Part shown: one piece after another, positions 5,870 to 27,252 of the stretch
How positions within the stretch are numbered: position 1 is the stretch's first letter
Layout of the letters: every line of letters starts with the position of its first letter
Assembly (NCBI GenBank): GCA_964581035.1
Contig: CAZOLO010000004.1
Span: forward strand, 1-63,818
From: an uncultured Candidatus Saccharibacteria bacterium
GTDB taxonomy: Bacteria > Patescibacteriota > Minisyncoccia > Phycocordibacterales > CSBR16-119
Direction: 5' to 3'
Length of the DNA: 63,818 bases
Translations under genes and position numbers: made by a program
Notes under the pieces: model-generated
What the model was told of the DNA's origin: nothing
Database searches by the model: none
Seen by the model: the letters and a program-made list of their open reading frames with translations, nothing else

Positions 5870-5933
5870 AAAACATGTTTTTTGTATTATTCAATATCTG
5901 TCAGAATTACAACAAAAGAGTTACACTAGTATT

Positions 5934-6899
5934 ATGAAAGAAAGAATTATTGTTACTGGCGCTGCCGGGTTTATTGGCTCTCATGTGGTAAAGAAACTCC
6001 TGGGTGAAGGGTATTTTGTAATTGGGCTGGATAATATGAATGATTATTATAATCCATTGCAAAAAGAGCAAAACATTAAGCAATTTGATTTATTTGATAA
6101 TTTTTCTTTTTATAAAACAGATATAGAAAATTTTGATGAACTAGAATCAATCTTTGAAAAAGAGGAGCCATCTCTTGTGTGTCATCTGGCGGCTAGAGCA
6201 GGGGTGAGATCTTCAATATTGAGTCCGCAAATTTATGAGTCTACAAATGTTCAAGGGACTATAAATCTTCTAGAATTATCTCGGATTAATGATATTAAGA
6301 ATTTTGTCTATGCTTCTTCTTCTTCTGTATACGGAGATTCAAAAGAATATCCTTTTATCGAAAGTTTGAGTCCGTTACAGCCAAAGTCACCCTATGCTGT
6401 TACAAAGCTTGCTTGTGAGTCTTATGCGCAAACGTATAGCAGGCTGCACGGACTTAATACAACCGGGTTAAGATTCTTTACTGTGTATGGCCCAGCAGCC
6501 AGACCAGATATGGCAACGTTTCTTTTTGTAGATTCGGTCCATAAAGGAAAAGATATAATTCAATATGGCCAGGGGGATACTTTTCGTGACTATACTTTCG
6601 TTGGAGATATTGCTGACGGTGTTTTGGAGGCGGTTAAAAAACCACTTGGTTGTGAAATTATAAATCTTGGTAGGGGTTGCCCAGTGAGCCTTTCTGTTTT
6701 AATAAAAACAATAGAAGATATTATGGGTAAAAAGGCATCAATTAAAATTGAGTCAAAGCAAGATTTTGATTCATCGGGTACTCATGCTGACATAACAAAG
6801 GCAAAAAAACTACTGGGCTATAATCCTAAAACTGACCTGAAGGATGGTTTAGTTGAGTTTGTTAATTGGTATAATGAAAATTATGATATTTTATCTTAG
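5934..6899 (+). CDS. NAD-dependent sugar-nucleotide epimerase (UDP-glucuronate 4-epimerase-like SDR)
   Basis: GAAGFIGSH Rossmann motif, YAVTKLACE (YxxxK), and DNMNDYYNPLQK, which is typical of the UDP-GlcA epimerase group. Confidence 0.8.
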   Translation: MKERIIVTGAAGFIGSHVVKKLLGEGYFVIGLDNMNDYYNPLQKEQNIKQFDLFDNFSFYKTDIENFDELESIFEKEEPSLVCHLAARAGVRSSILSPQIYESTNVQGTINLLELSRINDIKNFVYASSSSVYGDSKEYPFIESLSPLQPKSPYAVTKLACESYAQTYSRLHGLNTTGLRFFTVYGPAARPDMATFLFVDSVHKGKDIIQYGQGDTFRDYTFVGDIADGVLEAVKKPLGCEIINLGRGCPVSLSVLIKTIEDIMGKKASIKIESKQDFDSSGTHADITKAKKLLGYNPKTDLKDGLVEFVNWYNENYDILS

Positions 6900-6905
6900 C
6901 TTATT

Positions 6906-8030
6906 ATGAAAGTCACTCTTATAGTTCCAACAATGTTTGTGTCAGATAGAGGTACATCCATGAGAATTCAGGGTCAAGTTGAGGCTCTGGTAAAAAAAGG
7001 CTTTGGAGTTACAATTCTCACTTATGGTGTAGGTAGGACACCAGATAATTTAAGCAGTCAGCTATTTAAGATAAAAAGAATTCCAAATGTATTCCCGTGG
7101 TTAGAGAGCATACCGTCTGGATTCAGTTTATATAAAGTTGTTGCAGATATGGCTTTATTTTTCAAAGTATTAGTTTTCCTTTTGGGTGATTCGAGTCGTA
7201 CTATACATGCTTATTTGTACGAAGGGGTCCTAATTTCCTGGCTCGCCACTAATTTCCTTTTTTGGAGAGAGTATAAAATAATAGGCGATTTTCATGGTAG
7301 TTTGACTTCAGAAATTAAATTGAAATCAAGATTAGGTGGATATTTGTTGAAAAAAATTGAATCTTTTGTCCATGCTATTCCATACAAGGTATCGGTAAGC
7401 TCTTTTGAATTAGGTGAATATATTTCAAAGGATAGAATCGATAAGTCAGTGTTTGTTTTTGATGTTCCTTTGGTGGAAAATGGTGGTAGATCTGAACCTA
7501 AATTATCTATTCCAGATGATAAGACTATTGTCACTTATACGGGTGGCTTCGGTTCGGAGAAGGGGATAGACGTTTTGTGTAGACTCATGGTTAATCTTTC
7601 TGATTTAGATAATTTACATTGGATTATTGCAGGGTCTCCAATAGAAAATCTAAAGATACCAAAAGAAGTAGATTCTAAAAAGTATACAATTATAAACCCC
7701 CTTTCAAAAGAAATGCTTTTCAGAGTCTTAAAGGTCTCTGATATTGGTATAGATCCAAAAACGAAGGCTCTGCAGGGAAGCGGTAAATTAGTGAACTATT
7801 TATCTTTTGGCCTACCAACGGTTACTTTTTCTTCTAAAACTATTAATTCTTATTTAAGAGAATTGAGTGGGGAATTATCAGCTAGCTCTGTGGAAGATAT
7901 GGAAGACATACTTAGAAGTCTCATTTTGAATACAGAGAGAAGAAAGAGTATTAGTGTTATTGCTCTCAACAGGGTAGAGAATATTTCTATCAAAAAATTA
8001 GGAGATATTATTGCCGCTCTTTATGTCTAG
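6906..8030 (+). CDS. Glycosyltransferase, GT-B fold (GT4/GT1-like)
   Basis: Size and C-terminal half (TYTGGFGSEKGID...GSGKLVNYLSFGLPTV) resemble GT4 enzymes. Operon context supports the call. Confidence 0.7.
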   Translation: MKVTLIVPTMFVSDRGTSMRIQGQVEALVKKGFGVTILTYGVGRTPDNLSSQLFKIKRIPNVFPWLESIPSGFSLYKVVADMALFFKVLVFLLGDSSRTIHAYLYEGVLISWLATNFLFWREYKIIGDFHGSLTSEIKLKSRLGGYLLKKIESFVHAIPYKVSVSSFELGEYISKDRIDKSVFVFDVPLVENGGRSEPKLSIPDDKTIVTYTGGFGSEKGIDVLCRLMVNLSDLDNLHWIIAGSPIENLKIPKEVDSKKYTIINPLSKEMLFRVLKVSDIGIDPKTKALQGSGKLVNYLSFGLPTVTFSSKTINSYLRELSGELSASSVEDMEDILRSLILNTERRKSISVIALNRVENISIKKLGDIIAALYV

Positions 8031-9057
8031 AATTTCAAACAAAATAAATAATGTAGTTTTGATTGTTTCATATAATGGTAGAGACCATCTTGAAAAACTA
8101 TTACCATCACTATTCGATCAAACTATTTCAAAGGATCTATATAGAGTGGTTGTAGTTGATAATGGGTCTAGTGATACAACCGAGGTATTTCTGGGGAAGA
8201 AATATCCTGAAATTATTTTCATACCATTATCTAAAAATAAAGGTTTTGCTGAGGCAAATAATATAGGCATTAAGTATTCCGCGACCAATTTTGAAGGTCT
8301 GGAAAATATTATATTTCTAAACAATGACACCATGGTCTCTTCTAATTTTTTAGAAATACTTACTGATGGAATTAATAGGCACACTGATGCAGCTTCTGTT
8401 CAAACAAAAATAGTAAGCATGGATTCAAAGACGATAGATAGTGTTGGTATATCTCTACATAGAAGTTTTAATGCGGTTAACACTGGCCAGGGAGAGTTGG
8501 ATACTGGACAGCATGATAATTCTGAGAGAGAAATTTTTGGAACAACAGGTAGTGCTATGATCGCTAAGATTGAAGCTTTGAGGAGTTGTGATCTTGGAGA
8601 TAATAATTATTTCGATAGGTTATATTTTGCTTATAATGAAGATGTAGATCTAGCTTTAAGATTCAGATCGTCTGGATACTCTTCTTGGTATGTTCCAGGG
8701 GCTACAGTTCGGCATGTTCATAGTGCCACAGGGGGTAATCAATCAAAATTTAAAGCCTTTCATAGTCACAGAAACACAATATTTAATATTATTAAAAATG
8801 CCCCAGGTTTTTCTGTGTTTACTACACTTGCAGCATTTGTTGGCTCATATTTTTCTCAAATTAAAAATAATAAAGAAATCAAAACCTCCTTATCAAAATT
8901 AAAGGGGAATATAGGTTCACTTGGTATTATAATGCTTGTTTTAAGGGTTTGGATTTCTGTGATAATCTATATACCGGTAATTCTTCTTAAAAGGTATTTT
9001 CTACAGAGAGGTACAAAGATTGGATTCAAGGATATAAAAAGATGGTTGTATATTTAA
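8023..9057 (+). CDS. GT2 glycosyltransferase (rhamnosyltransferase-like) with C-terminal TM helix
   Basis: VLIVSYNGRDHLEKLLPSL, VVVDNGSSDTT, EDVDLALR. The ATG at 8023 overlaps the upstream stop (ATGTCTAG). The track start at 8011 is a TTG. Confidence 0.8.
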   Translation: MSRISNKINNVVLIVSYNGRDHLEKLLPSLFDQTISKDLYRVVVVDNGSSDTTEVFLGKKYPEIIFIPLSKNKGFAEANNIGIKYSATNFEGLENIIFLNNDTMVSSNFLEILTDGINRHTDAASVQTKIVSMDSKTIDSVGISLHRSFNAVNTGQGELDTGQHDNSEREIFGTTGSAMIAKIEALRSCDLGDNNYFDRLYFAYNEDVDLALRFRSSGYSSWYVPGATVRHVHSATGGNQSKFKAFHSHRNTIFNIIKNAPGFSVFTTLAAFVGSYFSQIKNNKEIKTSLSKLKGNIGSLGIIMLVLRVWISVIIYIPVILLKRYFLQRGTKIGFKDIKRWLYI

Positions 9058-9063
9058 TTTGAT

Positions 9064-9843
9064 ATGAACAAAAAACATGAAAATTACAAAGAGCTAGTTA
9101 TGCGTCTAGCTAAAACTGATTTCAAGTTGAGATATCATGATTCTTTTCTTGGTTATATTTGGGCAATATTGAAACCCCTACTTATATTTACGGTTCTAAA
9201 CTTTGTTTTTTCTTCGATTTTTAATTTTAAAAATTCTGGAACACCTCTTTATTCTCTTGAGCTTTTAACCGCCCTTATGTTGTTCAACTTCTTTGCAGAA
9301 GGTACTACTGCGGGGATGAGGTCTTTAATATCTAAAGCTCAACTGGTTACAAAGACATATGTTCCAAGATGGACTATTGTGGTCTCTTCTACAATAAACT
9401 CGCTGTTTGTTTTTTTGATGAATCTTATTGTTATCATTTTATTTTTTGCAGCGTATGGTGTTCTACCTAGTATAGGAGCCATAATAATATTCTTACTGTT
9501 TGTTGTTCTTTTGTATATTATTGTGCTGGCTTTCTCTTTTTTAACAGCCACAGTCTTTGTAAGATTTAGAGATCTTTCTATGATATGGGAGGTCGTTGTA
9601 ATGATTTTGATGTATATTTCACCAGTTGTTTACCCTCTTTCTTTGATGCCTGAAAATTTGCAAAAGATTATGTTGTTTAATCCACTTGGTTTCATTATCC
9701 ACTTTACAAAACAAGCATTAATATCTGGTCATTTTGCAACAGTATCTCAAATATTTGTTTTAATAGCAGTGATATTTCTATTTATGGGCGGGTCTATTCT
9801 ATGGTTTAATAGAAGTGAAAAAACCATTGCTGAATATATGTAG
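9064..9843 (+). CDS. wzm: ABC-2 type polysaccharide export permease (Wzm/TagG-like)
   Basis: 259 aa with six hydrophobic helices. N-terminal LAKTDFKLRYHDSFLGYIWAILKP motif is typical of ABC-2 glycan exporters. Immediately upstream of the Wzt-type ATPase. Confidence 0.85.
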   Translation: MNKKHENYKELVMRLAKTDFKLRYHDSFLGYIWAILKPLLIFTVLNFVFSSIFNFKNSGTPLYSLELLTALMLFNFFAEGTTAGMRSLISKAQLVTKTYVPRWTIVVSSTINSLFVFLMNLIVIILFFAAYGVLPSIGAIIIFLLFVVLLYIIVLAFSFLTATVFVRFRDLSMIWEVVVMILMYISPVVYPLSLMPENLQKIMLFNPLGFIIHFTKQALISGHFATVSQIFVLIAVIFLFMGGSILWFNRSEKTIAEYM

Positions 9844-9866
9844 AATATGAAATTTTTTAAAAAAAT

Positions 9867-11861
9867 ATGAACAATAAAGAAAAAATTTTTTTTTCGAAAG
9901 AAAAAGATCAGAGCGCTAACATCTCAAATGAAAGAGATTTATTAATTCAACGCATCAAGGGTGTTTTGAAATTAAGAGACATGGATATTAAAAATATAGT
10001 CATTTCAGTTCATATACCAAAAACAGCTGGTTCAACCTTTGCTGGAGTGCTTTCTGAAGAATTGGGAAATAAGATTTTGTTCGTTTATACAGCAGATAAT
10101 GGAAATGGATATTATGTATCAAAAACATTTGCTGATATAGATAGACTTAGAAAGACAGAGGAAGTTGTTGATATGGAAAAAATATTAAGTATTGTAAAAG
10201 AAAATAAAATAAGGTGTATTCATGGTCACGTAAATTTGTCACAAATGGAGAATCTCTTTAAAGGAGAGGGGTTTAATGTCTATGTAATGGCTTTTGTTAG
10301 AGATCCTATACAGAGAGCTTATTCTGAACTTTGTCATAAAAAAATATATGATTTAGACAAAAGGTCAGATATTGATATTTTGGAATCAACAGGGAATAAT
10401 ATATCCTCATTTATTGGTGGATATTCTCTATTAAATAATATTTGTTTTTTTCATACTGAGAATTTTGAAGATGCGATGGGCTCATTATCGCTTTCCTGGG
10501 GTGGTTTTATGAGAAATGTAAACAAAAAAAATAGTAATATTGAATTTAATAAGAGTCTCTTAGAAAAATATAATTCAAAAGACATTGAAATTTATGAAAG
10601 AATACTAAATTTTTTTCCTCGACATGCCAAGAAGAAGAACTCTGGATCTATCGCTATTTCGGCTTTTGGTGTATATAAGAGTTTCAAAATCCCCCTAGAT
10701 AAAATAGACTCTTTAAGGGGCTTGTTTATTTCAATATTTAAGAAAAAAACTTTTGAGAAATTTTTTGCCCTAAGTGATGTTTCATTTGAGATAAACAGGG
10801 GCGAGTTTTTTGGTATTGTTGGAAGTAACGGAAGTGGTAAATCTACTTTACTTAAAATTCTTTCTGGAGTTTATACTCCTAATTTAGGTGGTATCTCTAT
10901 AAAAGGAGCAGTCTCCCCATTTCTAGAGTTAGGAATAGGTTTTAATCCAGAACTTTCTGGTAGAGATAATATATATTTGAATGCTACAGTTTTGGGGTTA
11001 ACAAAAGACCAAGTGGATAAAAAATTTGATCAAATTGTTGATTTTTCTGAACTCGGTCGTTTTATAGATCAAAAAATAAAAAATTATTCTTCTGGTATGC
11101 AGGTTAGATTGGCTTTTTCAGTTTCAATTCATGCAAATAGAGAGATATTATTGATGGACGAAGTTTTGGCTGTTGGAGATGCATCATTTCAGGCAAAATG
11201 CATGAAGGAGTTTTATAGATATAAAAAAGAGGGTAAAACTGTTGTTTTGGTTTCCCACAATCTTTCTGTAATTGAACAGTATTGTGACAGGGCGCTTTTC
11301 TTAGATTCTGGTGAGGTTATTGCTATAGGTGACGCACGTGAAGTTGTCCAAAAATACAGAAATAAAACAGCAGAGAAATTTGCCATTACTCAGGCTAAAG
11401 AATCAGTAAAGCCAAGATCTGATCAATCCCTAGCGGAGGAGATAATATCTAAAAAAGTTGAAATAAAAAGAGTAACTTTTTACGATGGAGAAAATAACAA
11501 AAGACATCTTTTTACAACAGGGTCTGATTTGGTTGTGAGGGTTAAATTTGATGACCGGTTAAGTAGGGATGAAGATTTAAACTTTGGTGTCGCTATCTTT
11601 AGTGAGAAGAATACGTATATTTTAGGAGTAAATACAATTCTAGATAAAGTGGACTGTCGTAAATCTAGAGATAATGGATATTTTGAGATTTCGTACAAAA
11701 ATATACCTCTTAAAAATGGATCTTACTATGTTTCAGTTGGCTTGTTTGGTGAAGATGATTCCATTGTTTATGATTTTATGAATCAGTCTTCTTTTTTTGA
11801 GGTTATTTCTCCTGATCAAAATCATGGAATGGTTGACATAGGATATAGTTGGATTGTATAA
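9867..11861 (+). CDS. wzt: Three-module protein: N-terminal sulfotransferase-like domain, Wzt/TagH ABC ATPase, and C-terminal Wzt_C-type carbohydrate-binding beta-sandwich
   Basis: Sulfotransferase 5'-PSB-like HIPKTAGSTF and 3'-PB-like FVRDPIQRAYSE (aa ~45-250). Walker A GSNGSGKST, signature YSSGMQVRL, Walker B ILLMDEVLAVGD. C-terminal ~135 aa (IKRVTFYDGENN...LKNGSYYVSVGLF) matches the Wzt C-domain pattern. Confidence 0.85.
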   Translation: MNNKEKIFFSKEKDQSANISNERDLLIQRIKGVLKLRDMDIKNIVISVHIPKTAGSTFAGVLSEELGNKILFVYTADNGNGYYVSKTFADIDRLRKTEEVVDMEKILSIVKENKIRCIHGHVNLSQMENLFKGEGFNVYVMAFVRDPIQRAYSELCHKKIYDLDKRSDIDILESTGNNISSFIGGYSLLNNICFFHTENFEDAMGSLSLSWGGFMRNVNKKNSNIEFNKSLLEKYNSKDIEIYERILNFFPRHAKKKNSGSIAISAFGVYKSFKIPLDKIDSLRGLFISIFKKKTFEKFFALSDVSFEINRGEFFGIVGSNGSGKSTLLKILSGVYTPNLGGISIKGAVSPFLELGIGFNPELSGRDNIYLNATVLGLTKDQVDKKFDQIVDFSELGRFIDQKIKNYSSGMQVRLAFSVSIHANREILLMDEVLAVGDASFQAKCMKEFYRYKKEGKTVVLVSHNLSVIEQYCDRALFLDSGEVIAIGDAREVVQKYRNKTAEKFAITQAKESVKPRSDQSLAEEIISKKVEIKRVTFYDGENNKRHLFTTGSDLVVRVKFDDRLSRDEDLNFGVAIFSEKNTYILGVNTILDKVDCRKSRDNGYFEISYKNIPLKNGSYYVSVGLFGEDDSIVYDFMNQSSFFEVISPDQNHGMVDIGYSWIV

Positions 11862-11906
11862 AATGTTTTTTTGTCAAGGAGGACAATACTCTTAATTTTT
11901 GGTAGG

Positions 11907-14900
11907 ATGATTTTTATGAAATGGAGATATTTTAAGCCTGTATTTTCTTATCAGGAATCGTTTGATGATGGGGCTTCTGCCTGGTCTGGGCATCGTTATT
12001 TTGCATATGACTTAATTAGAAATATTAAGCCTGAAGTAATTGTTGAGTTAGGGTCTTACAAGGGTACGTCTTTTTTTTCAATGTGTCAGGCTGTTAAGGA
12101 TGATCTTTATTTATCTAAAGGACTTTTTCCAGTTGACGCATGGGTGGGTGATGAGCACACAGGTTTTTATGACTCATCAATTTACTTAGATTTCATAAAG
12201 ATTAAAGATAAGCATTATGATCAGCTGCCTATAAAACCAATTAAAAAGACTTTTGACGAATCTGTTGGTCTTTTTGAAGATAACTCCATAGATCTTCTTC
12301 ATATAGACGGTTTGCATACCTATGAAGCTGTGAAGCATGATTTTGAGCTTTGGCTACCAAAAATGAAGCAAGATGGGGTGGTTCTTTTTCATGATATTAA
12401 GGTTAAAGAGGGTGACTTTGGGGTGTATCAGTTTTGGGGTGAGATAAAGAATGATTATTTTTCTTTAGAATTTGACCACTCTTTTGGCTTGGGGGTTTTA
12501 TTTTTAAAAGATTTCGATAATTCTATATTGAGAGATGGGGAGGAGCTAAAGATGCACTACTCTTTTTCTCATGAGATGAACAATATTCTATCTATTGAGC
12601 AAAAAGAAAGGGAAATGATAGAACATAGGTCTAAATTTCTGGGCAAGATAGATTTTTTGGAAAAATCAATATCAGATTATTATGAAGAGAAAGAAAAATT
12701 AGAAGGTCAATTTATAAGAATTAAAGAAGAAAAGAATCAGCTTGAAATTGAATTATTATCTTTGAGAGAAAAGGTGGGTGTTTTTGGTTCACGTATTAAT
12801 AGGATGAGTGAAGATATTGCATTAAAAGAAAAAGAGATGGCTGGCAAGGATATAGACCTTGCTATAAAGATCTCTGAAAAAGAAATGCTTATTTCTCAAT
12901 TAGAAAAACAGAGAGAGGTTTTTTTTAATGAGTACCAAGATATCCAAAAAGAGTTAATATCTAGTGTTGGTTTAATAAACAAAAAAGATTTAATCTTGAA
13001 AAATAAAGAAGATGAAATATTGGCAATCTTAAAAAAGCATGAAAAAGATTTAGAGATGGTAAACCTCTCTAAGGTTTCTGAGATTAAAAATAGAGATGAA
13101 ATTATTGAAAACCTCAACAAAGACCTTAATAATAAAAGAGAATCAATTTCTTTGGTTGAACAACAGCTTGATTTATCGAATAGGGAAATAGATAGCCTTA
13201 ATAATAGTATTATTTCGTATCAAGAAATTGTGGCTAGGATGCAAGCCTCAAGCTTTTGGAAAATTAGAAGGGTTTACTTGAATGCTAAATGGGCGATAAC
13301 TAACCCTTATGGATTTTTGAAAAAATATTTGCTAAATAGATTGCCTGGATACCCTCAGATCTATTGGGCGATAACTAACCCTATAAAATATTATAAGAAA
13401 TATCACAAAAGATTTTTGATTACCAAATCCCTGGAGCTTGGTAATAGAGAGGAAAAAGTTGAATTATCCTCTGTTTTTTTTGAATCTGCTAATGATTATA
13501 TAGAAGAAATGCTTAAGCAGTATAAGCATAACAAAAGTGATTATAAAAATATATTCAAGAAAGTTGAGCCGTTTGCTATATACTTCCCACAGTTTCATTT
13601 TATTGAAGAAAATAGAAAATCTTTTTATGAAGGGTATCATGACATGATTAATTTGGCTCATGCAAAAGATGTAAATCCAAACATAGAGTCACCACTTAGT
13701 AGCCCCCTTGGGATGTATGATCTTTCTGAGAATAGAAATATAATTCCAATTCAGATTGAGACTGCGAAAGCATATGGTTTTAAGGGTTTTGGAGTGTACT
13801 ATTATTGGTTTAGTGAAAATTCATCAACTGGAAATAACATGCTAATGAAAGATGTTGTTGATCAATTTTTTATCAAAGATAATGATGGTTTCGAGATATT
13901 CTTTATTTATGCAAATGAAAGTTGGAGTGACAATGTTTCTTTTAATCAAAACTTGAGCGATACGGTTATAAGAAATAAGTACAACGAAACTTCAATTAAG
14001 AAGAATATAAAAAACTTAATTCCATATTTTAAAAACAAAAACTACAAAAAGGTTAATAATAAGCCTGTGTTCTTCATATATCATTCATGGGAAATGACAG
14101 ATAAAGAAATTAAAATTTTCCAAAAGATTGGAGATTCTATGCTTAAAGAAGAAGGGTTTTCTGGTTTGGAGCTGGTTATCAATTCTAATAAAAAGAAATA
14201 CAAGGAGAATGTAAATTATGTACACAATCCAAACTATAAAACTAAGGAGGTCTCAAGTTTTATGTTTCAAGAAAAGGGTGTTAATTATATAGATTACAAA
14301 AAATATTTTGAAGATTATATTTCTAGATCTTTTTCTAAAGAAAATGACATTTTGTCGGTTTTCTATAATTTTGACAATACTATAAGACTGTTTTTCCATG
14401 AAAACAGATCTCAGCATTTAACCAAAACACTTAATAACAATATAGAAAGTTTTAAAAAATTTATCAAAATGCAACTTTCTAAATATTCAAAAAGATCAGG
14501 TGTTTCAAAAATATTTTTAGTTAATTCTTGGAATGAGTGGGGAGAACAGATGGCAATTGAGCCAAGTGAAGAATCTGGATTCAGGCTACTTAATGCTTGG
14601 AGAGAAGCGCTAATGAATAGCTTTGCTACAGAATCTGGGCCACAGAAAGAGGAAAGACTAAATCAATGGCATCCTAAGATATCAATAATAACCCCTACAT
14701 TTAATTCTGGGGAAACCTTAGAAGATTGCATAAAAAGTATAGTGGGCCAGTCTTATAAGAATATTGAGCATGTAATAATAGACAAGATGTCTACTGATAA
14801 CACTTTAGATATCATAAATAAGTATAAGAAAAAATATAAACATATTAAGGTCTTTTCCCAGAATGATTCTGGTATTTATGATGCTATGAATATTGGATTA

Positions 14901-15335
14901 GATCTATGTGAAGGGGATTGGGTTCACTTTTTAGGAAGTGATGACATTCTGTATTCAAATGACACCTTGAGTAAAGTTGTAAAAAATATCTCGTCCGACT
15001 TGGATGTTGTATATGGAAATGTTGTGTGGGGGAACAGCGGCAAGGTTTACGATGGAGCATTTGATAAAATTAAGTTATCTCAGAAAAACATTTGCCACCA
15101 AGCCATGTTCACCAGAAAAGATTTATTTAAAAAGATTGGAAAATTCAATAAAAAATATACAGCTACAGCTGATTGGGAATTTAATATGAGATGGTTTGGT
15201 AGAGAAGACGTTAAAAGTAGATATTTGGATATTATTATTGCGAAATATTGCACAGAGGGATTTTCCTCAAAAAACGAAGACCTAATAATGATAAAGGATC
15301 ATGAAGAAATCGTAAAAAAATATCTATCGATATGA
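11907..15335 (+). CDS. Giant multidomain glycan-assembly protein: class I SAM methyltransferase, ~230-aa coiled coil, WbsX-like domain, GT2 domain
   Basis: N-terminal VIVELGSYKGTSFF...LLHIDGLHTYEAV...VVLFHDI. Heptad-rich K/E/L region at nt ~12553-13260. FAIYFPQFHFIEEN...NSWNEWGEQMAIEP (WbsX-type). ISIITPTFNSGETL...IIDKMSTDNT...GSDD (GT2). Start uncertain (ATG 11907 or 11916; TTG 11871). Confidence 0.85.
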   Translation: MIFMKWRYFKPVFSYQESFDDGASAWSGHRYFAYDLIRNIKPEVIVELGSYKGTSFFSMCQAVKDDLYLSKGLFPVDAWVGDEHTGFYDSSIYLDFIKIKDKHYDQLPIKPIKKTFDESVGLFEDNSIDLLHIDGLHTYEAVKHDFELWLPKMKQDGVVLFHDIKVKEGDFGVYQFWGEIKNDYFSLEFDHSFGLGVLFLKDFDNSILRDGEELKMHYSFSHEMNNILSIEQKEREMIEHRSKFLGKIDFLEKSISDYYEEKEKLEGQFIRIKEEKNQLEIELLSLREKVGVFGSRINRMSEDIALKEKEMAGKDIDLAIKISEKEMLISQLEKQREVFFNEYQDIQKELISSVGLINKKDLILKNKEDEILAILKKHEKDLEMVNLSKVSEIKNRDEIIENLNKDLNNKRESISLVEQQLDLSNREIDSLNNSIISYQEIVARMQASSFWKIRRVYLNAKWAITNPYGFLKKYLLNRLPGYPQIYWAITNPIKYYKKYHKRFLITKSLELGNREEKVELSSVFFESANDYIEEMLKQYKHNKSDYKNIFKKVEPFAIYFPQFHFIEENRKSFYEGYHDMINLAHAKDVNPNIESPLSSPLGMYDLSENRNIIPIQIETAKAYGFKGFGVYYYWFSENSSTGNNMLMKDVVDQFFIKDNDGFEIFFIYANESWSDNVSFNQNLSDTVIRNKYNETSIKKNIKNLIPYFKNKNYKKVNNKPVFFIYHSWEMTDKEIKIFQKIGDSMLKEEGFSGLELVINSNKKKYKENVNYVHNPNYKTKEVSSFMFQEKGVNYIDYKKYFEDYISRSFSKENDILSVFYNFDNTIRLFFHENRSQHLTKTLNNNIESFKKFIKMQLSKYSKRSGVSKIFLVNSWNEWGEQMAIEPSEESGFRLLNAWREALMNSFATESGPQKEERLNQWHPKISIITPTFNSGETLEDCIKSIVGQSYKNIEHVIIDKMSTDNTLDIINKYKKKYKHIKVFSQNDSGIYDAMNIGLDLCEGDWVHFLGSDDILYSNDTLSKVVKNISSDLDVVYGNVVWGNSGKVYDGAFDKIKLSQKNICHQAMFTRKDLFKKIGKFNKKYTATADWEFNMRWFGREDVKSRYLDIIIAKYCTEGFSSKNEDLIMIKDHEEIVKKYLSI

Positions 15336-17158
15336 AAAAATTCTCAATTATAATCCCTGCATTTAAGGGTAAATATCTGAAGACGGCAATAGATTCTGTA
15401 CTCAACCAGTCATATTCTGATTTTGAGCTGGTTGTTTATAACGATGGTTCTCCAGATGATATTTCTAGAATCGTTAAATCCTATAATGATCATCGAATAC
15501 AGTATTATAGCGGTGGCGATAATATTGGTAAAGATTTCCCAACAAGAGCATGGAATAAGGCTGTTGGTATGTCAGTTGGTGAATATATATGTCTTTTGGG
15601 GGACGATGATTTTTTGTCTTTAAATTTTCTAGAGGAGATTTCAGCTTTAATTTTGAAGTATCCAGAGAATAATATATTTAGATCTAAGGTGAATAGAGTT
15701 GACGAAAAAGGAGAAATTATATTTTTTGGAGAGACACTTCCTGAGGAGGAGTCTTGGATGGAATTCCTTTTCCAAAGAAACGTGAATAAGAGAATGCAGT
15801 CCACTTGTGAATTCGTCTTAAAGAAGGAGGCCCTTATTGCTGCTGGGGGTTATAAAGATTTTCCCAGAGCATGTGGTAGTGATGATGTGGCATATTTGCT
15901 TATCGCAAGAGATAGGGGGGTTGTATCAACAAATGGAACCATTGCATATTGGAGAAAACACCATCTAAATATTTCAGATAATGATAGCGATGATATGAAT
16001 GCTTATAAAGTTAGATTTTTTATGGAATGGGAAAGACAATTTTTTAATAGAGAATTCTTTTTGAATCTTCCAAGAAAGGTAGAAGAAAAAGATCTTGTGG
16101 CAGATTTACAAAATAAAATTATGGATCTAGAATGGCAAATTAAAGGTCAAGGGCTTCATTTTGGTTCAAATGGCTGCTTGTCTTTTTTAAAAACTAAATT
16201 TTTATCAAGAAGATTTTTTAAGGGTTCTAGTCTAAAAAATAAAAAAATCTATAAGAAAAAAGTTCTATATATAGGTCACTCTTATCACAACAAGACAAAA
16301 TCAAACAGTTTTTTCATGGACTATTTGAAGGATTTTTATGATGTTGAAGTTTTATCTGATGAATCTTGGATGGGGGGTACATATCCAGATCTAAAGTTTG
16401 TCGATAGTTCTTATCATGCAGTTATATTTTGGCAAAATTTACCTGGACCAGAAATTGTAAAAAAAATAAATAATAATAATCTTGTATTTTTCCCAATGTA
16501 CGATGCCGTGGTGGGGTCTGAATTTAATTTTGATGATAGATATAAGCAAATGAAGATTATAAACTTTTCTAAGAAATCTCATGAAGAATTTTCCTCAAGA
16601 GGATTTAATTCTATGTATATTCAGTATTTCCCGGAGCCCAGAGATTTTACTCCAGGTAAAAGTAACAAAGCTTTCTTTTGGCAGAGAATAAGTAAAATTA
16701 ATGTTAATAATATTATTAATTTGTTTGGTAGTCAGAAAATTCAGATTTACTTACATAAGGCTGTAGATCCAGGGAATGAATTTGTGGAGCCAAAGAAAAA
16801 GGATATCAATAGCTTTAACTTTGTAATCTCTGATTGGTTTGGCTCTAAAGAAGAGATGGTTGATTATATTGAAGATCTAGGTATATACGTTGCCCCTAGA
16901 GAATTTGAAGGTATAGGAATGTCATTTTTGGAAGCCATGTCTATGGGTAAAGCTGTTATTGCTGTAGATAAGCCTACTATGAATGAATATATAGAAAATA
17001 ACAAGAACGGATACTTATATGATCTAGACAATATAAAGAATATAGATTTTTCTAATATAGAAGAAATTCAAAAGAATGCACACTCTTTTATTAAAAAGGG
17101 TTATAATATATGGATGAAGAGGCGCTTTAAGATTATAGATTTTATAGAAAATAAATAA
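15332..17158 (+). CDS. Dual-domain glycosyltransferase (N-terminal GT2, C-terminal GT4/GT-B)
   Basis: FSIIIPAFKGKYLKTAIDSVLNQSY...YNDGSPDD...LGDDD, then C-terminal EGIGMSFLEAMSMGKAVIA...NGYLY (EX7E-type). ATGA overlap with the upstream gene. Confidence 0.85.
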   Translation: MKKFSIIIPAFKGKYLKTAIDSVLNQSYSDFELVVYNDGSPDDISRIVKSYNDHRIQYYSGGDNIGKDFPTRAWNKAVGMSVGEYICLLGDDDFLSLNFLEEISALILKYPENNIFRSKVNRVDEKGEIIFFGETLPEEESWMEFLFQRNVNKRMQSTCEFVLKKEALIAAGGYKDFPRACGSDDVAYLLIARDRGVVSTNGTIAYWRKHHLNISDNDSDDMNAYKVRFFMEWERQFFNREFFLNLPRKVEEKDLVADLQNKIMDLEWQIKGQGLHFGSNGCLSFLKTKFLSRRFFKGSSLKNKKIYKKKVLYIGHSYHNKTKSNSFFMDYLKDFYDVEVLSDESWMGGTYPDLKFVDSSYHAVIFWQNLPGPEIVKKINNNNLVFFPMYDAVVGSEFNFDDRYKQMKIINFSKKSHEEFSSRGFNSMYIQYFPEPRDFTPGKSNKAFFWQRISKINVNNIINLFGSQKIQIYLHKAVDPGNEFVEPKKKDINSFNFVISDWFGSKEEMVDYIEDLGIYVAPREFEGIGMSFLEAMSMGKAVIAVDKPTMNEYIENNKNGYLYDLDNIKNIDFSNIEEIQKNAHSFIKKGYNIWMKRRFKIIDFIENK

Positions 17159-17195
17159 GCCTCTGACTAAATTAAAAACTAGAAATATTTAAATT

Positions 17196-18056
17196 TTGAA
17201 TAACGAAGATCAAAATAATCAAGAATTAGAGTTTGTACCATCTGGTCATTATTTTTCGCCGTCTCCATCTATTAAAGAAATAATATCTAAAGAAAATACA
17301 ATATGGGGTGAAATGCCAAAAGAGATCCCTGGGATAAACCTAAATACAGATGGTCAGTTTGACCTACTGGATAAGTTAGAAGTTTTCTATAAAGATATAC
17401 CCTTTGAGGATCAAAAAAAAGATGGCCTGCGTTATTACTTCGACAATAATGCTTATGGTTATTCGGATGCAATCTTTTTATACTTTATGATTAGATATCT
17501 TAGACCTAAGAGGGTTATAGAAGTAGGGTCGGGATTTTCTTCGTGTGTTATTTTAGACACCAATGAGTTATTTTTTGATTCAAAGATAAACGTTTCTTTC
17601 ATAGAGCCTTATCCTGAGCTTTTGAAGTCTTTGATTAAAGAATCAGATCTTTTGAATAACATGCTCCATTCATCTGGAGTACAAGATGTTCCGCTATCTT
17701 TTTTTGAGTCCTTAGAGTCTGGTGATATATTATTTATAGACTCTACACATGTCTCAAAGATTGGAAGTGATGTGAATTATATAATACACAAAGTACTCCC
17801 AGTTCTTGCATCTGGAGTTCATGTTCATTTTCATGATATCTTTTACCCATTTGAATACCCTAAAGAGTGGGTTATAGAAGAAAGGAGATTTTGGAATGAG
17901 CAATACTTATTAAGGGCTTTTTTAGAATTCAACTCAGAATATGAGATAGTAATCTTTAACACTTATTTGGAGTATTTATTCAGATCTAAATTAGAAGAAA
18001 GGTTTCCTCTTATTTTTAAGAATCCTGGTGGAAGTATCTGGATAAAAAGAAAATAG
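17196..18056 (+). CDS. Class I SAM-dependent methyltransferase (same subtype as the N-terminus of the 11907-15335 protein)
   Basis: PSGHYFSP N-terminal motif, VIEVGSGFSSCV, ILFIDSTHVSKIGSDV, VHVHFHDIFYPFEYP. TTG start at 17196; there is no in-frame ATG upstream of the conserved N-terminus. Confidence 0.75.
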   Translation: MNNEDQNNQELEFVPSGHYFSPSPSIKEIISKENTIWGEMPKEIPGINLNTDGQFDLLDKLEVFYKDIPFEDQKKDGLRYYFDNNAYGYSDAIFLYFMIRYLRPKRVIEVGSGFSSCVILDTNELFFDSKINVSFIEPYPELLKSLIKESDLLNNMLHSSGVQDVPLSFFESLESGDILFIDSTHVSKIGSDVNYIIHKVLPVLASGVHVHFHDIFYPFEYPKEWVIEERRFWNEQYLLRAFLEFNSEYEIVIFNTYLEYLFRSKLEERFPLIFKNPGGSIWIKRK

Positions 18057-18066
18057 CCAATAAAAA

Positions 18067-19698
18067 ATGAAAAATAATATTTTTTTTAATTTTAAATTAG
18101 ATAACTCCAGTCTTTTAAAAGTCATAATGGCTGTCTTTTCTCTATCTGTAGCCTTTTTATACTTTGGGCCAACAATTAGAGCTGATTTGGATATAATAGA
18201 TGATCACTTTTTGTATATAGAGAACGATATATCTCAGAACAATGGAACAGTGTGGAGTAACTTTAAAAAATCAGAAGAAATTGTTAATTTTGGAAACTCG
18301 GATAGATTTAGGATTATATATAAATTGATAAATGATATAGAGTTGAAAGTTTTTAATTTGGATGTTTCATATTTTTATCTAACTAATATTATTGTTTTTG
18401 CGATATTTCTTTTTGGTGTTTTCTATATAACTCAAGCTAATCTTGACTATAGATGGGCTATATTATTCACTTTATTTGTCTCTAGTCAAAAGTATCTTGT
18501 TCATATTTTTACAAGATTAGGCACAGCTGAAGTTTGGACTATATTGGGCACCTCTGTATACTTTTTAGGGGTTAGCTCTATCTATAGAAAATCCCTCAAG
18601 GAAGATGCTCAATCTTCGACATGGAAGGAGGTTTTGGCAATGCTTATTGGTGCGATTATTACCATTGGCTCAAAAGAGAATTTCGCAATAATGGGTATTT
18701 TTGTTGTAAGCTTGTATATTTTTTTGAAAATTAGAAAAAAAGTTACACCATTTTTTACCGCCTCTTCAATAATGATTTTATTATTTAATCTTTATCAGGT
18801 TTTACATATTTACTTAACACATTCATCTAAAGGTGTAGACGTCTATGCAAATGATGTGAGTCTTCTTCATAGGTTTTTGACTCTACTTAGCGGAGCTTTC
18901 AGTGGTGAGGCAAGAATGTATACATTATTTTTTATTACATTTTTTATATCTATCGTGATAGGTTATATTTTTACTGCAAAAAAAAGATTAGAAAAAATAA
19001 AAGATATAGTTTATCAAAATAGATGGGTTAATTATCTCTTCATTGGCGCCATTCTTTTTGTCGTTTATATTTTTAATTTGTATGTTTACAACGGCTTACT
19101 TTATCCTGTACATAGATATGCCTTTCCTTCAATACTTGTATTACAGATAATTTCTTTAATTTGGTTGATATGGCTTATTGATTTTTCAATAATTCTAAAT
19201 TTTTTCAAAAAAGAGAAGTTCTTAATTAGATTTCAGCTGTTCATTTTTGGCGCACTAATGGTAGCACTTTTTCTTAATGGTATTTATGCTAGGGAGGCAT
19301 CTTTTGTGACTGTGGCTAGAACGAATTATTTCAACAATAATTTAGAGAGAATCATGAATACGGTCAAACAGGAGCCAGAATCAGTAATTATCTTGTCCGT
19401 GTATAATGTATCTGACGCAGAACCAGTAGTATCTACGGCTGAATATTTGAGATTTTATGGAGTAAAAAATCCTATTATGGTAAAAGGTTTTTATAAAATT
19501 TCTAGCAATTTTTCTCCAATTGAAATCGCAATAGAAAGAGTGGTTTCTTCGTGGGAAAGTTTTGGTGCAAAATACATATCAGCATATAATCTTCAAGATG
19601 ATAATAAATGCTTTAATATAAATTTTAGTGGAACGGAAGATTATATACATTGTGAAAATCTTGGTCGAATTTGGCAGCAAGGTGAATTTAAATATTAA
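18067..19698 (+). CDS. Polytopic membrane protein (543 aa, ~11 TM helices plus C-terminal soluble domain), possible GT-C type enzyme
   Basis: Hydrophobicity pattern; acidic first-loop motif ADLDIIDDHF; glycan-operon context. No named family recognised. Confidence 0.6.
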   Translation: MKNNIFFNFKLDNSSLLKVIMAVFSLSVAFLYFGPTIRADLDIIDDHFLYIENDISQNNGTVWSNFKKSEEIVNFGNSDRFRIIYKLINDIELKVFNLDVSYFYLTNIIVFAIFLFGVFYITQANLDYRWAILFTLFVSSQKYLVHIFTRLGTAEVWTILGTSVYFLGVSSIYRKSLKEDAQSSTWKEVLAMLIGAIITIGSKENFAIMGIFVVSLYIFLKIRKKVTPFFTASSIMILLFNLYQVLHIYLTHSSKGVDVYANDVSLLHRFLTLLSGAFSGEARMYTLFFITFFISIVIGYIFTAKKRLEKIKDIVYQNRWVNYLFIGAILFVVYIFNLYVYNGLLYPVHRYAFPSILVLQIISLIWLIWLIDFSIILNFFKKEKFLIRFQLFIFGALMVALFLNGIYAREASFVTVARTNYFNNNLERIMNTVKQEPESVIILSVYNVSDAEPVVSTAEYLRFYGVKNPIMVKGFYKISSNFSPIEIAIERVVSSWESFGAKYISAYNLQDDNKCFNINFSGTEDYIHCENLGRIWQQGEFKY

Positions 19699-19700
19699 AT

Positions 19701-20426
19701 ATGGATATAAGGTTACACAAAAAATATCAAGAACTTCAAGAGTCACATTGGTGGTTTATGGTTAGAGATAATCTATTAATGGATCTAGTCTTTAAGAATA
19801 TAAAGAAAGGATCATTAGTGATGGATTTTGGGTGTAATTACGGACATGCTGTAAAACTCTTGGGCGACAAAGGGTATGAATCTTTTGGAGTTGATGTTTC
19901 AAGAGAAGCTGTAAATTATGGTAGATCAATTAATATAAATGACATATCTCTGATATCAGAAAAGGATATTCAAAATAATTCTCTAGACGCAGTAATATCT
20001 ATGGATGTTTTGGAGCATATAGATAATGACAAGGAAACACTTGAATATATTTGGTCAAAATTAAAGCCTGGAGGATTAATGATTGTTACGGTTCCAGCTT
20101 TTATGTTTCTGTGGGGTGTTCAGGATGAGATTTCTCATCATTTTAGGAGGTATAAGCTTTCAGAGCTTTTATATTTAGCTGGGGAAGTAGGAGATTTTGA
20201 GATTGTTAAAAAGACATATTTTAATTCGTTTCTTTTTATGCCCGTTGCTATTATTAGAGTTTTATCTAAGTTGTTTAAATTAAAAAGTAGGAATTCAGAT
20301 CTTGACATTAATAGTGTTTTTCTTAATAAGATATTTTTCAAAATCTTTGATTTAGAGAGAAGGTTACTAAAATATATTAATTTTCCTTTTGGGGTCTCTG
20401 CCTTACTGGTTTTAAGAAAAAGGTAA
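19701..20426 (+). CDS. Class I SAM-dependent methyltransferase (Methyltransf_11/23-like)
   Basis: VMDFGCNYGH (motif I), AVISMDVLEHIDND, LKPGGLMIVTVP. Confidence 0.8.
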   Translation: MDIRLHKKYQELQESHWWFMVRDNLLMDLVFKNIKKGSLVMDFGCNYGHAVKLLGDKGYESFGVDVSREAVNYGRSININDISLISEKDIQNNSLDAVISMDVLEHIDNDKETLEYIWSKLKPGGLMIVTVPAFMFLWGVQDEISHHFRRYKLSELLYLAGEVGDFEIVKKTYFNSFLFMPVAIIRVLSKLFKLKSRNSDLDINSVFLNKIFFKIFDLERRLLKYINFPFGVSALLVLRKR

Positions 20427-21293
20427 AAATCTTCGAGGTTTTATACTAAGATCTTTTTCTAGGTTAGGGCTCATTAAATCTTTTTTGCAAACAAACCTTT
20501 GTAATTGGTCGGGGGTACCTATGTTAAAAAATCTACTTAGAAAAATAAGTGGTATTTTAATAAATAGAAATGGGATTGGTAGAAGAAGCCTACTTTTATT
20601 TTCATTTTTGCACATACGAACGAGGACCTCTTTCAATTTCAAGTTTTCTGGTCCACAGACTGTGTAGGTTTTATTATATGTTTTAGGATTTTCTATTGTA
20701 TTAACTATTATTCTTAACACATCTTCTTTGTGTATAGGGGCCAGATTATTATTTAATTTGGCTGGGTAGGGGATTATAAAGCTTCTTTTAATCAGTTTCT
20801 GCAAACTATTCAATCCTTCCTTTCCTATAAAGTTTTCTTCATAAACTTCTCCAACTCTTAGTATTGTGTGGTTTATTCCATATTTTTTGATTGCCTCTTC
20901 AGCTATTTTCTTAGATTCACCATATGACCCACAGCAAGAACCAATAGCTCTTGTACTTATAAATATAAAGTGATATACCCCAGCACTTTTCCCAAAATTT
21001 ATAAGCCTTTGTGTTCCAATATTATTAATTCTTGTATAATTTTGTGGGTCTTTTGAGTGGGTTATTGCAGCAAGGTGTAAAATTATATCGATTTTAGGGA
21101 TTTCTTTTTCCCAAATTTCAGGCTCTTCAATAGATCCATTTACTATGTTGATGCCTCTCGTGTCTATATCTATACTATTTTTATGGATCAGTAAAAAAAT
21201 TTCATAGGTCTCTCTGATCATGTTAGTCAGATCTCTTCCTAGGAAGCTCGAGGCTCCAGTTATTAGTATCTTTTTTTTAGTTAATTCTGTCAT
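20412..21293 (-). CDS. NAD-dependent epimerase/dehydratase family SDR
   Basis: ILITGASSFLGRDL Rossmann motif; YGESKKIAE (YxxxK). ATGA coupling with the upstream GT2 gene. Confidence 0.8.
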   Translation of the reverse strand: MTELTKKKILITGASSFLGRDLTNMIRETYEIFLLIHKNSIDIDTRGINIVNGSIEEPEIWEKEIPKIDIILHLAAITHSKDPQNYTRINNIGTQRLINFGKSAGVYHFIFISTRAIGSCCGSYGESKKIAEEAIKKYGINHTILRVGEVYEENFIGKEGLNSLQKLIKRSFIIPYPAKLNNNLAPIHKEDVLRIIVNTIENPKTYNKTYTVCGPENLKLKEVLVRMCKNENKSRLLLPIPFLFIKIPLIFLSRFFNIGTPDQLQRFVCKKDLMSPNLEKDLSIKPRRFLPFS

Positions 21294-22015
21294 TTTTTAA
21301 ACTCCTTTAATCTTGATATTATTATGTTTTTGATAAATTCAAGATTGGTCTTAAATGTTATAGAAGAAGAGTAATCTTTATTTTTATAGAAACAAGTTTC
21401 TACTTCACCTATTTTGAATTTGTACCTCCTGGCTTTGATCATTATTTCACTATCAATAAACCAATCATCAGATTCTAAATGAAGTTTTTCGAATGCCTCT
21501 TTTGTAAATATCTTTGGTTTGCCATTGATGTCCCCTGCCACTATTCCAGGAAAAATTAGATTCATAATTGCGTTAAATATTCTTGATATAATCTTTCTAT
21601 AAAATCCATCTTCTCTAGATACTCTTTTTGTTTTACATAAGTCTAATTTTTCATTAATTAATTTTAGATAAACAAGAGGTATATCTTTTGCGGGCATCTG
21701 ACCGTCTCCATCAATTACACATATAGTTTTACCTTTAGCTAATCTAAGACCTGATCTCATGTCCCAACCCATGGCTTGTTTACTGTCTGTTTTTTCTTCT
21801 ATAATAGATAAAGTGTTAGGATTATTTTCTGATATTTTTTTAACTACTATTGGAGTGATATCGCCACTTTCTGGTCTGTAATTCCCAACAATTATTATCT
21901 CGTAACTTAGATTTTTTTCTTCCAGAGCATTTACAACCTTTTTGTGGAAGGAAAATAAAGAATCACCAGCTTTGTAGCCTAAGATTACAACTGAGATGTC
22001 TTTTTGTTTTTCCAT
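21290..22015 (-). CDS. GT2 glycosyltransferase, soluble polyprenyl-phosphate sugar synthase-like (ArnC/DPM1-like)
   Basis: ISVVILGYKAGDSL, IIIVGNY and VIDGDGQMPAKDI motifs. Start set to the ATG at 22015 (MEKQKDISVV). Confidence 0.75.
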   Translation of the reverse strand: MEKQKDISVVILGYKAGDSLFSFHKKVVNALEEKNLSYEIIIVGNYRPESGDITPIVVKKISENNPNTLSIIEEKTDSKQAMGWDMRSGLRLAKGKTICVIDGDGQMPAKDIPLVYLKLINEKLDLCKTKRVSREDGFYRKIISRIFNAIMNLIFPGIVAGDINGKPKIFTKEAFEKLHLESDDWFIDSEIMIKARRYKFKIGEVETCFYKNKDYSSSITFKTNLEFIKNIIISRLKEFKK

Positions 22016-22069
22016 GAAGATTGATATGTGTCCAACTTGTCTAGGCATTATACTACAATACCAAACTCT

Positions 22070-22102
22070 ATCAATTACTTTGATAAATATACGTGGTATA
22101 AT
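22070..22102 (+). promoter_or_regulatory. Candidate promoter with extended -10 (TGgTATAAT) ending 6 nt before the ATG at 22109, implying a leaderless mRNA
   Basis: TTACTT, 16-nt spacer, TATAAT, gccgac, ATG, all read from the sequence. Confidence 0.3.
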
Positions 22103-22108
22103 GCCGAC

Positions 22109-22456: not shown

Positions 22457-22457
22457 C

Positions 22458-23027: not shown

Positions 23028-23155
23028 ATTTTATATCTCTTGTGCCTTCCTGAATATCACAAGAGAAAGTCGCATTCAATTTTTATTGAAAGGTAAGTTG
23101 CTATTTAAAATAGAAATACTTTTGTAGTCACACCCTTAATTAGCCCTCAATAAAT

Positions 23156-27216: not shown

Positions 27217-27224
27217 GGGTGTTT

Positions 27225-27252
27225 AAAAACCAGATTAATATCTGGTTTTTTT
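27225..27252 (+). terminator. Terminator after paralog 1 (AAAAACCAGA-loop-TCTGGTTTTTTT)
   Basis: Hairpin plus T-run. A near-identical hairpin follows paralog 3. Confidence 0.7.

Follow-up and report, generated by a model that had tools for sequence, protein, structure and literature searches.

The locus studied here raises the question of what a single protein might do that combines a methyltransferase, a long helical segment and two glycosyltransferase-type modules, and whose gene directly follows those of an ABC transporter for glycan export. It lies on contig CAZOLO010000004.1, whose 63,818 nucleotides are referred to here as the window. A reading of the DNA made without database searches (the sequence-only reading) had proposed that this protein terminates, measures and polymerises a glycan. 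According to our analysis, the protein probably acts in the cytoplasm as a peripheral enzyme that assembles a surface glycan, in an ABC-transporter-dependent pathway of an uncultured, ultrasmall Paceibacteria bacterium of the Candidate Phyla Radiation (CPR). A terminator-ruler-polymerase mechanism appears to be its best explanation, with a probability of roughly 60%. The gene and the successive parts of its product, numbered from the ATG at 11907, are the following.

11916 to 15335, forward strand: target gene, encoding the head-coil-anchor-WbsX-GT2 protein (list of open reading frames, translation, homologue alignment).
11907 to 12521, forward strand, residues 1–205: Methyltransf_24 head, MeT1/CmcI-like cation-dependent O-methyltransferase, proposed capping domain (Pfam, AlphaFold2, Foldseek, profile).
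12537 to 13247, forward strand, residues 211–447 (~237 residues): helical heptad-repeat spacer, proposed molecular ruler (composition, periodicity, heptad score, AlphaFold2).
13248 to 13406, forward strand, residues 448–500: basic-aromatic junction, proposed membrane-interface anchor or polymerase docking site (composition, homologue alignment).
13566 to 14606, forward strand, residues 554–900: WbsX-type module (PF14307), putatively sugar-adding (Pfam, DSSP pattern).
14673 to 15332, forward strand, residues 923–1142: C-terminal GT2 module of GT-A fold (Pfam, match to PDB 9omh).

The open frame extends from 11871 to 15335, and the ATG at 11907 yields the single 1142-residue polypeptide described in the sequence-only reading. 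The continuous frame is real, but its start is likely to be the ATG at 11916 (M4), since nearly all homologues pair their own residue 1 with query residue 4, the representative of the target's database cluster has 1139 residues and an AGGA is located 8 nt 5′ of this codon. The order of domains is a Methyltransf_24 head, a helical heptad spacer, a basic-aromatic region with W-x-I-T-x-P, a WbsX-type module and a GT2 module. The motifs quoted earlier for the globular parts were located in the translation at residues 44–55 (VIVELGSYKGTS), 130–142 (LLHIDGLHTYEAV), 158–164 (VVLFHDI), 556–569 (FAIYFPQFHFIEEN) and 873–886 (NSWNEWGEQMAIEP). All Pfam matches of the protein exceed the gathering score, and no transmembrane segment was predicted anywhere along it.

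The head is the best-conserved part: the N-terminal 200 residues are 44–68% identical to those of 119 homologues. Methyltransf_24 (PF13578) matches residues 46–164 (E 3.7e-23, 82.9 bits against a cut-off of 26.3). Across 30 multidomain and 16 short homologues the invariant residues are V46-E47-L48-G49...G53, which form the S-adenosylmethionine (SAM) motif, together with D77, D134-G135-x-H137 and H162-D163. The AlphaFold2 model of this domain has a predicted local distance difference test score (pLDDT) of ~90. Its top Foldseek match is MeT1 of Mycobacterium hassiacum (E 5e-8, template modelling (TM) score 0.65 on the target, probability 1.00), followed by catechol-type O-methyltransferases. A profile of the head run against the Protein Data Bank (PDB) also retrieves MeT1 (E 4e-5), aligned over the L-x-I-D-G-x-H-T...H-D block, and more weakly CmcI (E 0.054). 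Since the family-invariant residues are kept and both fold and profile matches lead to O-methyltransferases, the head looks like an active enzyme of this kind. The earlier assignment to the class I SAM methyltransferases is thus upheld and narrowed to the fold of the cation-dependent O-methyltransferases, and the concern that the domain might be an inactive fold lacking SAM-binding residues is answered by the presence of E47-L-G49...G53 and D77. WbdD was matched neither by phmmer with the target (E ≤ 0.01), nor by the head profile (E ≤ 1), nor among the 50 best Foldseek matches, and CgnL was not found in the PDB by the head profile at E ≤ 1. By these comparisons the methyltransferase family of the head is a different one from that of WbdD. 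When the whole protein was submitted to Foldseek, the 50 best matches were nearly all methyltransferases, the exception being a weak match to a heparosan synthase at rank 50.

The spacer was assessed with our own heptad score, a periodicity test with shuffled sequences and the secondary structure of the AlphaFold2 model. Residues 152–466 are the longest proline-free stretch of the protein, and E, K, R, Q, L and I make up 61% of residues 222–455. In this interval the windowed 3.5-residue hydrophobic periodicity reaches z = 3.5, a value attained by 2 of 500 composition-preserving shuffles, compared to −0.6, 1.1 and 1.7 for the three globular domains of the same protein. Four heptad register blocks carry hydrophobic residues at 48 of 64 a/d positions (75%) against 36 of 157 elsewhere (23%), a contrast that is inflated because the registers were picked to maximise a/d hydrophobicity. 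Using an alignment of 30 sequences, AlphaFold2 places helices at 211–288, 297–354 and 358–447. Composition, periodicity, heptad occupancy and structure prediction together indicate that the spacer is helical and heptad-patterned, and the propensity for coiled-coil formation claimed earlier is therefore seen with each of the measures applied. Fully extended, 237 helical residues would span ~35 nm by calculation.

The spacer ends in a 53-residue junction (SSFWKIRRVYLNAKWAITNPYGFLKKYLLNRLPGYPQIYWAITNPIKYYKKYH) composed of SSFWKIRR followed by two copies of a WAITNP motif. The duplication had been noted earlier and is confirmed, with WAITNPY at 462–468 and WAITNPI at 487–493. The junction contains 10 basic and no acidic residues (net +10) and 13 aromatic residues; three short helices are predicted, with moderate hydrophobic moments (0.25–0.39). 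S448 and W451 are nearly invariant, S-x-x-W being kept in at least 90% of 30 aligned homologues. A small motif profile, S-[SK]-x-W-[KR]-[ILV]-[TR]..., finds 64 of 120 homologues at E < 0.01, with the motif in every case located where the spacer ends on its C-terminal side. We suggest that residues 448–500 may bind the membrane.

Beyond the junction, Glyco_tran_WbsX covers residues 556–897 (E 1.7e-45, 156.5 bits against a cut-off of 25.1) over profile positions 2–349 of 350, and Glycos_transf_2 matches residues 926–1055 (E 2.2e-27). The closest solved relative of the latter module is PDB 9omh (E 3e-23), which is WrtF, an O-polysaccharide fucosyltransferase (PMC12595478). Of the two glycosyltransferase modules proposed in the sequence-only reading, the GT2 is solid, but the WbsX-type module owes this label to its family name; it may transfer a sugar.

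The genes immediately 5′ of the target and the one directly following it are those that such a mechanism would draw on.

9064 to 9843, forward strand: wzm, ABC-2 permease of the glycan exporter (Pfam; 62% identity to the wzm of the sister locus L001, described below).
9867 to 11861, forward strand: wzt, with a sulfotransferase-like domain (residues ~40–262), a nucleotide-binding domain (264–510) and a Wzt_C carbohydrate-binding domain (527–658) (Pfam, PDB match, model).
15332 to 17158, forward strand: dual GT2-GT4 glycosyltransferase of 608 residues (Pfam).

The Wzt_C match is clear (E 3.6e-20), and residues 264–628 of Wzt match the full-length Aquifex aeolicus protein, including its carbohydrate-binding domain (E 4e-65). 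In all terminated O-polysaccharide systems a module of Wzt binds the terminal epitope and only terminated chains are exported (PMC11231755). The GT2-GT4 gene is coupled to the target, as stated earlier, through an ATGA overlap of its start with the target stop codon.

The relatives of the protein are numerous. At E ≤ 1e-30, a search of 1.84 billion cluster representatives retrieves 3,099 members of the head family. Relatives of the head occur in at least 587 species genomes, from the CPR, Bacillota, Pseudomonadota, Bacteroidota, Chlorobiota, Deinococcota and Acidobacteriota. A Wzt nucleotide-binding domain is encoded in the fetched stretch of 42 of 82 head-family loci, mostly less than 700 bp from the head gene. 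The survey of homologues proposed earlier reveals that coil length does vary: measured from head to S-x-x-W in 64 homologues, the spacer ranges from 55 to 452 residues with a median of ~105, and the 252 residues of the window protein are among the longest. All but the longest three of 30 spacers checked are nearly proline-free and rich in E, K, R, Q, L and I, and these three include inserted globular sequence. Short homologues of 260–300 residues consist of the head, a short coil and the S-x-x-W-K motif only, resembling a miniature WbdD. In two of these (P0242 and P0245, 290–300 residues) the coil is built of tandem repeats of the type QQKDQ(L/E)INEKDQEL (columns ~250–340 of the alignment of short homologues), so coil length in the head family may change by expansion and contraction of repeats.

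The most informative relative is the sister locus L001, which is syntenic with that of the window and has orthologous flanks at 34–65% identity. Residues 4–475 of the target, that is head, coil and anchor, align at 40% identity with a 788-residue protein (P0012) and the two diverge beyond this point. The glycosyltransferase modules of L001 are different and mostly carried by a separate protein of 1287 residues. Identity between the two loci is 61% for the methyltransferase head, 59% for the Wzt carbohydrate-binding domain, 68% for the Wzt nucleotide-binding domain, 42% for the anchor and 24% for the coil, whose length from head to motif is similar (233 against 252 residues). Conservation of head and Wzt binding domain across loci with different polymerases is the pattern predicted by the terminator model.

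In the mechanism we favour, the basic-aromatic region 448–500 would hold the WbsX and GT2 modules at the membrane where, together with the coupled GT2-GT4 enzyme, they would extend a polyprenol-linked glycan. The ~237-residue helical segment would keep the O-methyltransferase off the membrane, by up to ~35 nm, and only chains that are long enough would reach the head. O-methylation at the non-reducing end would then stop elongation, and the methyl cap would be the tag for the carbohydrate-binding domain of Wzt, so that Wzm/Wzt would export finished chains only. This supposes that methylation is terminal, capping the chain rather than marking internal sugars, and that the coil measures chain length. 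The terminator-ruler-polymerase design is well supported computationally, by an orthologous locus that keeps the head, the binding domain and the coil length, and by the range of 55–452 residues in the spacers of its relatives; every computational test suggested with the sequence-only reading gave a favourable result.

Several points weigh against this mechanism. The coil, first described as an uninterrupted segment of ~230 residues, has the heptad and helical signal over ~237 residues, but two breaks are predicted, at 289–296 (around G-V-F-G) and 355–357, and there are three register shifts. Confidence in the coil model is moderate (pLDDT ~50–79), and a monomer model is compatible with an extended coiled coil as well as with a helical bundle that folds back on itself. 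The AlphaFold2 model is poor over the second half of the GT2 module. Our literature searches found no biochemical data for any member of the head family, and those on PF13578 and Methyltransf_24 found nothing on glycan enzymes. Finally, the locus encodes two other methyltransferases, either of which could make the cap.

17196 to 18056, forward strand: stand-alone, distant Methyltransf_24 protein (Pfam; no counterpart in L001).
19701 to 20426, forward strand: class I methyltransferase, Methyltransf_23/11 (Pfam; 62% identical to its sister-locus counterpart).

The first of these had been called a free-standing paralog of the head. This overstates the relationship: the two share a Pfam family but are only distantly related, with 26% identity over 200 residues (pairwise E 2e-4). 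Having no counterpart in the sister locus, it is probably, to judge from this comparison, specific to the repeat unit of the window locus.

One alternative concerns the WbsX-type module, which, instead of being a polymerising glycosyltransferase, might act as a hydrolase or trimming domain of the GH99-like type, or bind glycan without catalysing a reaction. Its relatives are labelled 'glycoside hydrolase family 99-like domain-containing protein' at NCBI, and strands and helices alternate in the AlphaFold2 model in a (beta/alpha)-type pattern according to DSSP. No solved relative was found by sequence search, and literature searches on WbsX, PF14307 and 'GH99-like' yielded no work on glycan enzymes, the matches to WbsX being filarial antigens. 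Many head-coil fusions nevertheless carry the module at the place of the polymerase, beside GT2, GT4 or RgpF modules, and it is also present in proteobacterial loci adjoining wzm/wzt; its W-N-E-W-x-E motif is conserved in the aligned homologues. An example is a locus of Arenimonas (L002), where wzm, wzt and a methyltransferase gene precede that of a 1521-residue MT24-WbsX-GT4-GT2 protein. We regard a hydrolytic or binding role as unlikely. Polymerisation would in that case fall to the C-terminal GT2 module and the downstream GT2-GT4 enzyme, and the rest of the terminator-ruler-polymerase model would be compatible with it.

The main rival to the mechanism, which we consider unlikely, sees in the protein a polymerase whose methyltransferase decorates the glycan. 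In this case the head would O-methylate internal sugars of the repeat unit and the helical segment would serve for oligomerisation or as a scaffold only, without setting length; a cap, if there is one, would be provided by the two other methyltransferases or by the sulfotransferase-like domain of Wzt. The presence of these three further modifying domains in the locus speaks for such an arrangement, as does the finding that methylation by WsaE, a capping enzyme discussed below, does not depend on the length of the chain in vitro (PMC2943079). Periodicity z-scores are moreover weak in many homologue spacers, although the test itself is weak for short ones. Against decoration, the head is positioned at the anchor-distal end of the coil, as in every characterised terminator (PMC11231755). 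Head and Wzt binding domain are conserved together (61% and 59%) despite differing polymerases, whereas the extra Methyltransf_24 gene is specific to the window locus and absent from L001, and nothing but head, coil and anchor motif is present in the minimal homologues.

That an assembly or frameshift error united separate genes, as might be imagined from the mostly separate polymerase modules of L001, is very improbable and was rejected: the frame is unbroken and a helical linker joins the anchor to the WbsX module, the 1139-residue cluster recurs on three contigs (five member sequences), dozens of homologues, many of them independent and from other phyla, have head, spacer and glycosyltransferase fused likewise, and the pair formed by the window and L001 shows, at the level of sequence, that the arrangement can change between fused and split, and this meets the objection.

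The terminator-ruler-polymerase mechanism was originally framed in terms of lipopolysaccharide (LPS) O-antigen, a frame that requires a diderm host with LPS. The LepA protein of the window (47229–49073) is 87–92% identical to its nearest relatives, and the few of these that are named belong to Candidatus Paceibacteria, Paceibacterota or Patescibacteria, with 88% for the closest of them. Homologues of the target likewise come in many cases from CPR lineages. CPR bacteria are monoderm and without LPS. The O-antigen frame is thus not appropriate here and the product would be a wall-, lipid- or surface (S)-layer-linked glycan rather than an LPS O-antigen. The head family itself occurs also in O-antigen-type loci of diderms, such as that of Arenimonas. 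A literature search found no paper linking wzm/wzt with Patescibacteria.

An additional feature of the locus is the N-terminal domain of Wzt. Its ~260 residues (9867–10655) contain both binding motifs of sulfotransferases for 3′-phosphoadenosine-5′-phosphosulfate (PAPS), VHIPKTAGSTF and AFVRDPIQRAYSE, with HIPKTAGST and FVRDPIQR as their cores. Eleven positions, H49, P51, K52, T53, G55, G120, H121, R145, P147, R150 and S153, are invariant in comparison with six stand-alone Sulfotransfer_2-type proteins and the L001 orthologue, whose own sulfotransferase-like domain is 28% identical. The Pfam match is weak (E 0.007). With the AlphaFold2 model (pLDDT 71) sulfotransferases rank first in Foldseek, at low TM-scores and mixed with P-loop kinases. 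A word-indexed homologue search with this domain returned six weak matches and missed both the window's own Wzt and the L001 orthologue, so it tells little about how frequent the fusion is. A sulfotransferase fused to the ATPase of a glycan exporter looks unusual. We tentatively consider, as a possibility with the odds against it, that this domain sulfates the length-calibrated, methyl-capped glycan at the export gate. If so, such a 'modify-as-you-export' arrangement would be a variant of Wzm/Wzt export not described for any characterised transporter, and the surface of an episymbiotic, ultrasmall bacterium would bear a sulfated glycan, plausibly for attachment to the host.

In a further locus (L008, Candidatus Moraniibacteriota, CP175956.1) a relative of the Wzt sulfotransferase-like domain is encoded ~900 bp from a head gene, whose product is a 297-residue head-coil protein. 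From this proximity, genes for methyl-capping and sulfation may travel together.

The glycan locus as a whole occupies approximately 4928–24628 and is distinguished by a GC content of 0.30–0.32 against 0.36–0.41 in its surroundings. It also encodes GT4 and GT2 enzymes and SDR-type sugar-nucleotide enzymes, as well as the following.

18067 to 19698, forward strand: conserved polytopic membrane protein of 543 residues, with at least seven predicted transmembrane segments and a soluble C-terminal part (transmembrane prediction).
4928 to 5869, 21290 to 22048 (reverse strand), 22028 to 23027 and 23156 to 24628 (reverse strand): Gtr/Arn-like three-component set, kept in L001.

The membrane protein matches no family in Pfam or NCBIfam and shares 47% identity with the corresponding protein of L001; it is a candidate for a GT-C-like transferase or a ligase joining the finished glycan to an acceptor. 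The Gtr/Arn-like set comprises two polyprenyl-phosphate glycosyltransferases, small multi-spanning membrane proteins and a GT-C/PMT_2 enzyme, and suggests that side-branch sugars may be added outside the membrane after export. Between the convergent genes for a small membrane protein and the PMT_2 enzyme lies a strong hairpin (22995–23028) with a 15-bp stem followed by a T-run; apart from it, a scan of the locus for promoters and terminators gave results at chance level.

Downstream of the glycan locus, three large open reading frames (848, 754 and 826 codons) occupy 24670–32066, where GC content climbs from 0.31 to 0.40. Each product has one N-terminal hydrophobic segment and two of them also a C-terminal one; apart from a single PG_binding_1 domain there are no family matches. 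These are possible surface or S-layer proteins and might be glycan acceptors. Further along, 33853–37435 encodes a TraG/VirD4-like coupling ATPase (725 residues) and then a protein with lamin-tail and PKD domains, which may belong to a type IV secretion or DNA-uptake apparatus. An apparatus of this kind is typical of CPR genomes. The leucyl-tRNA synthetase encoded by leuS (41848–44673) carries a NUDIX hydrolase domain (42991–43341, residues 382–498, Pfam E 7.9e-14) inserted after the editing domain.

If the terminator-ruler-polymerase interpretation is right, a strategy worked out in Enterobacteria extends to the CPR, whose surface glycans are essentially unstudied and may mediate the obligate attachment of these bacteria to host cells. 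The family defined by a Methyltransf_24 head, a coil and S-x-x-W is very large, and we found no characterised member. The window and L001 provide a natural pair, one fused and one split, with a shared head, cap reader and coil length and with different polymerases. Along with the broad spread of spacer lengths, this pair could serve for tests of the ruler model beyond E. coli and Klebsiella and for chain-length glyco-engineering.

Membership in the class of coiled-coil terminators and terminator-polymerases is defined by architecture, not by sequence. Several of its features are seen in the target: a proposed capping head at the membrane-distal end of a coil, the coil, glycosyltransferase-type modules on the same chain and a Wzm/Wzt exporter with a C-terminal carbohydrate-binding module (CBM). 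Since the precedents ORF6, WbbB, WbdD and WsaE have been published, the target is, in our analysis, a member of an already characterised architectural class. The novelty implied in the sequence-only reading, a WbbB-like logic with a methyltransferase as head, had thus already been described for K. pneumoniae O7 ORF6 (PMC11231755) and for WsaE (PMC2943079).

The O7 ORF6 protein (Kelly et al., J Biol Chem 2024, PMC11231755) begins with a methyltransferase, a kinase and a CBM, continues with a central coiled coil and ends in two GT2 modules, and has been found experimentally to both polymerise and terminate; in the same work the coiled-coil protein is called a marker of a strategy widespread in bacteria. 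Like the target, it unites a methyltransferase terminator, a coil and two C-terminal glycosyltransferase modules on one chain and works with a further stand-alone glycosyltransferase and a Wzm/Wzt exporter. The target differs in having neither the kinase nor the Ig-like CBM, its coil beginning directly past the head at residue 211. ORF6 makes a methyl-phosphate cap and its methyltransferase resembles CgnL, so that the two heads are probably of different families, as judged through CgnL and from the description of ORF6. Both glycosyltransferase modules of ORF6 are GT2, whereas the first module of the target is of WbsX type, and the product of ORF6 is the LPS O-antigen of a diderm host, in contrast to the CPR host of the target.

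WbbB of K. pneumoniae O12 and Raoultella terrigena similarly carries a terminator, a coil that acts as a ruler (PMC11231755) and two polymerising glycosyltransferase modules in one protein. Its terminator is a beta-Kdo glycosyltransferase (GT99) and it has no methyltransferase; no sequence relation between the target and WbbB was detected. WbdD (E. coli O8/O9a; K. pneumoniae O5/O3) shares the N-terminal methyltransferase, with or without a kinase, and the coiled-coil ruler, and has a membrane-binding region at its C-terminal end and a cap read by the CBM of Wzt. Unlike the target it represents the split version, which recruits a separate polymerase, WbdA, and its methyltransferase is from another class I family than the head.

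WsaE, which takes part in S-layer glycan synthesis in Geobacillus stearothermophilus NRS 2004/3a (PMC2943079), resembles the target in its monoderm host, in the gene order wzm-wzt-wsaE and in that one protein carries both an O-methyltransferase at the N terminus, which caps the chain, and two glycosyltransferase domains. Its cap is 2-O-methyl-rhamnose, both glycosyltransferase domains are rhamnosyltransferases and Wzt is predicted to bind the methylated end (PMC2943079). The closest solved relatives of the head, MeT1 of M. hassiacum (PDB 6g7d and 6g80) and the CmcI-type enzymes, share the D-G-x-H-T...HD motifs. In contrast to the target they are stand-alone proteins of ~220 residues with neither coil nor glycosyltransferase modules and are ~20% identical to the head. 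MeT1 reportedly methylates a sugar hydroxyl (Ripoll-Rozada et al. 2019). What is distinctive in the target is the combination of a MeT1/CmcI-type head that lacks a kinase, a first module of WbsX type, a WrtF-related GT2 and a CPR host.

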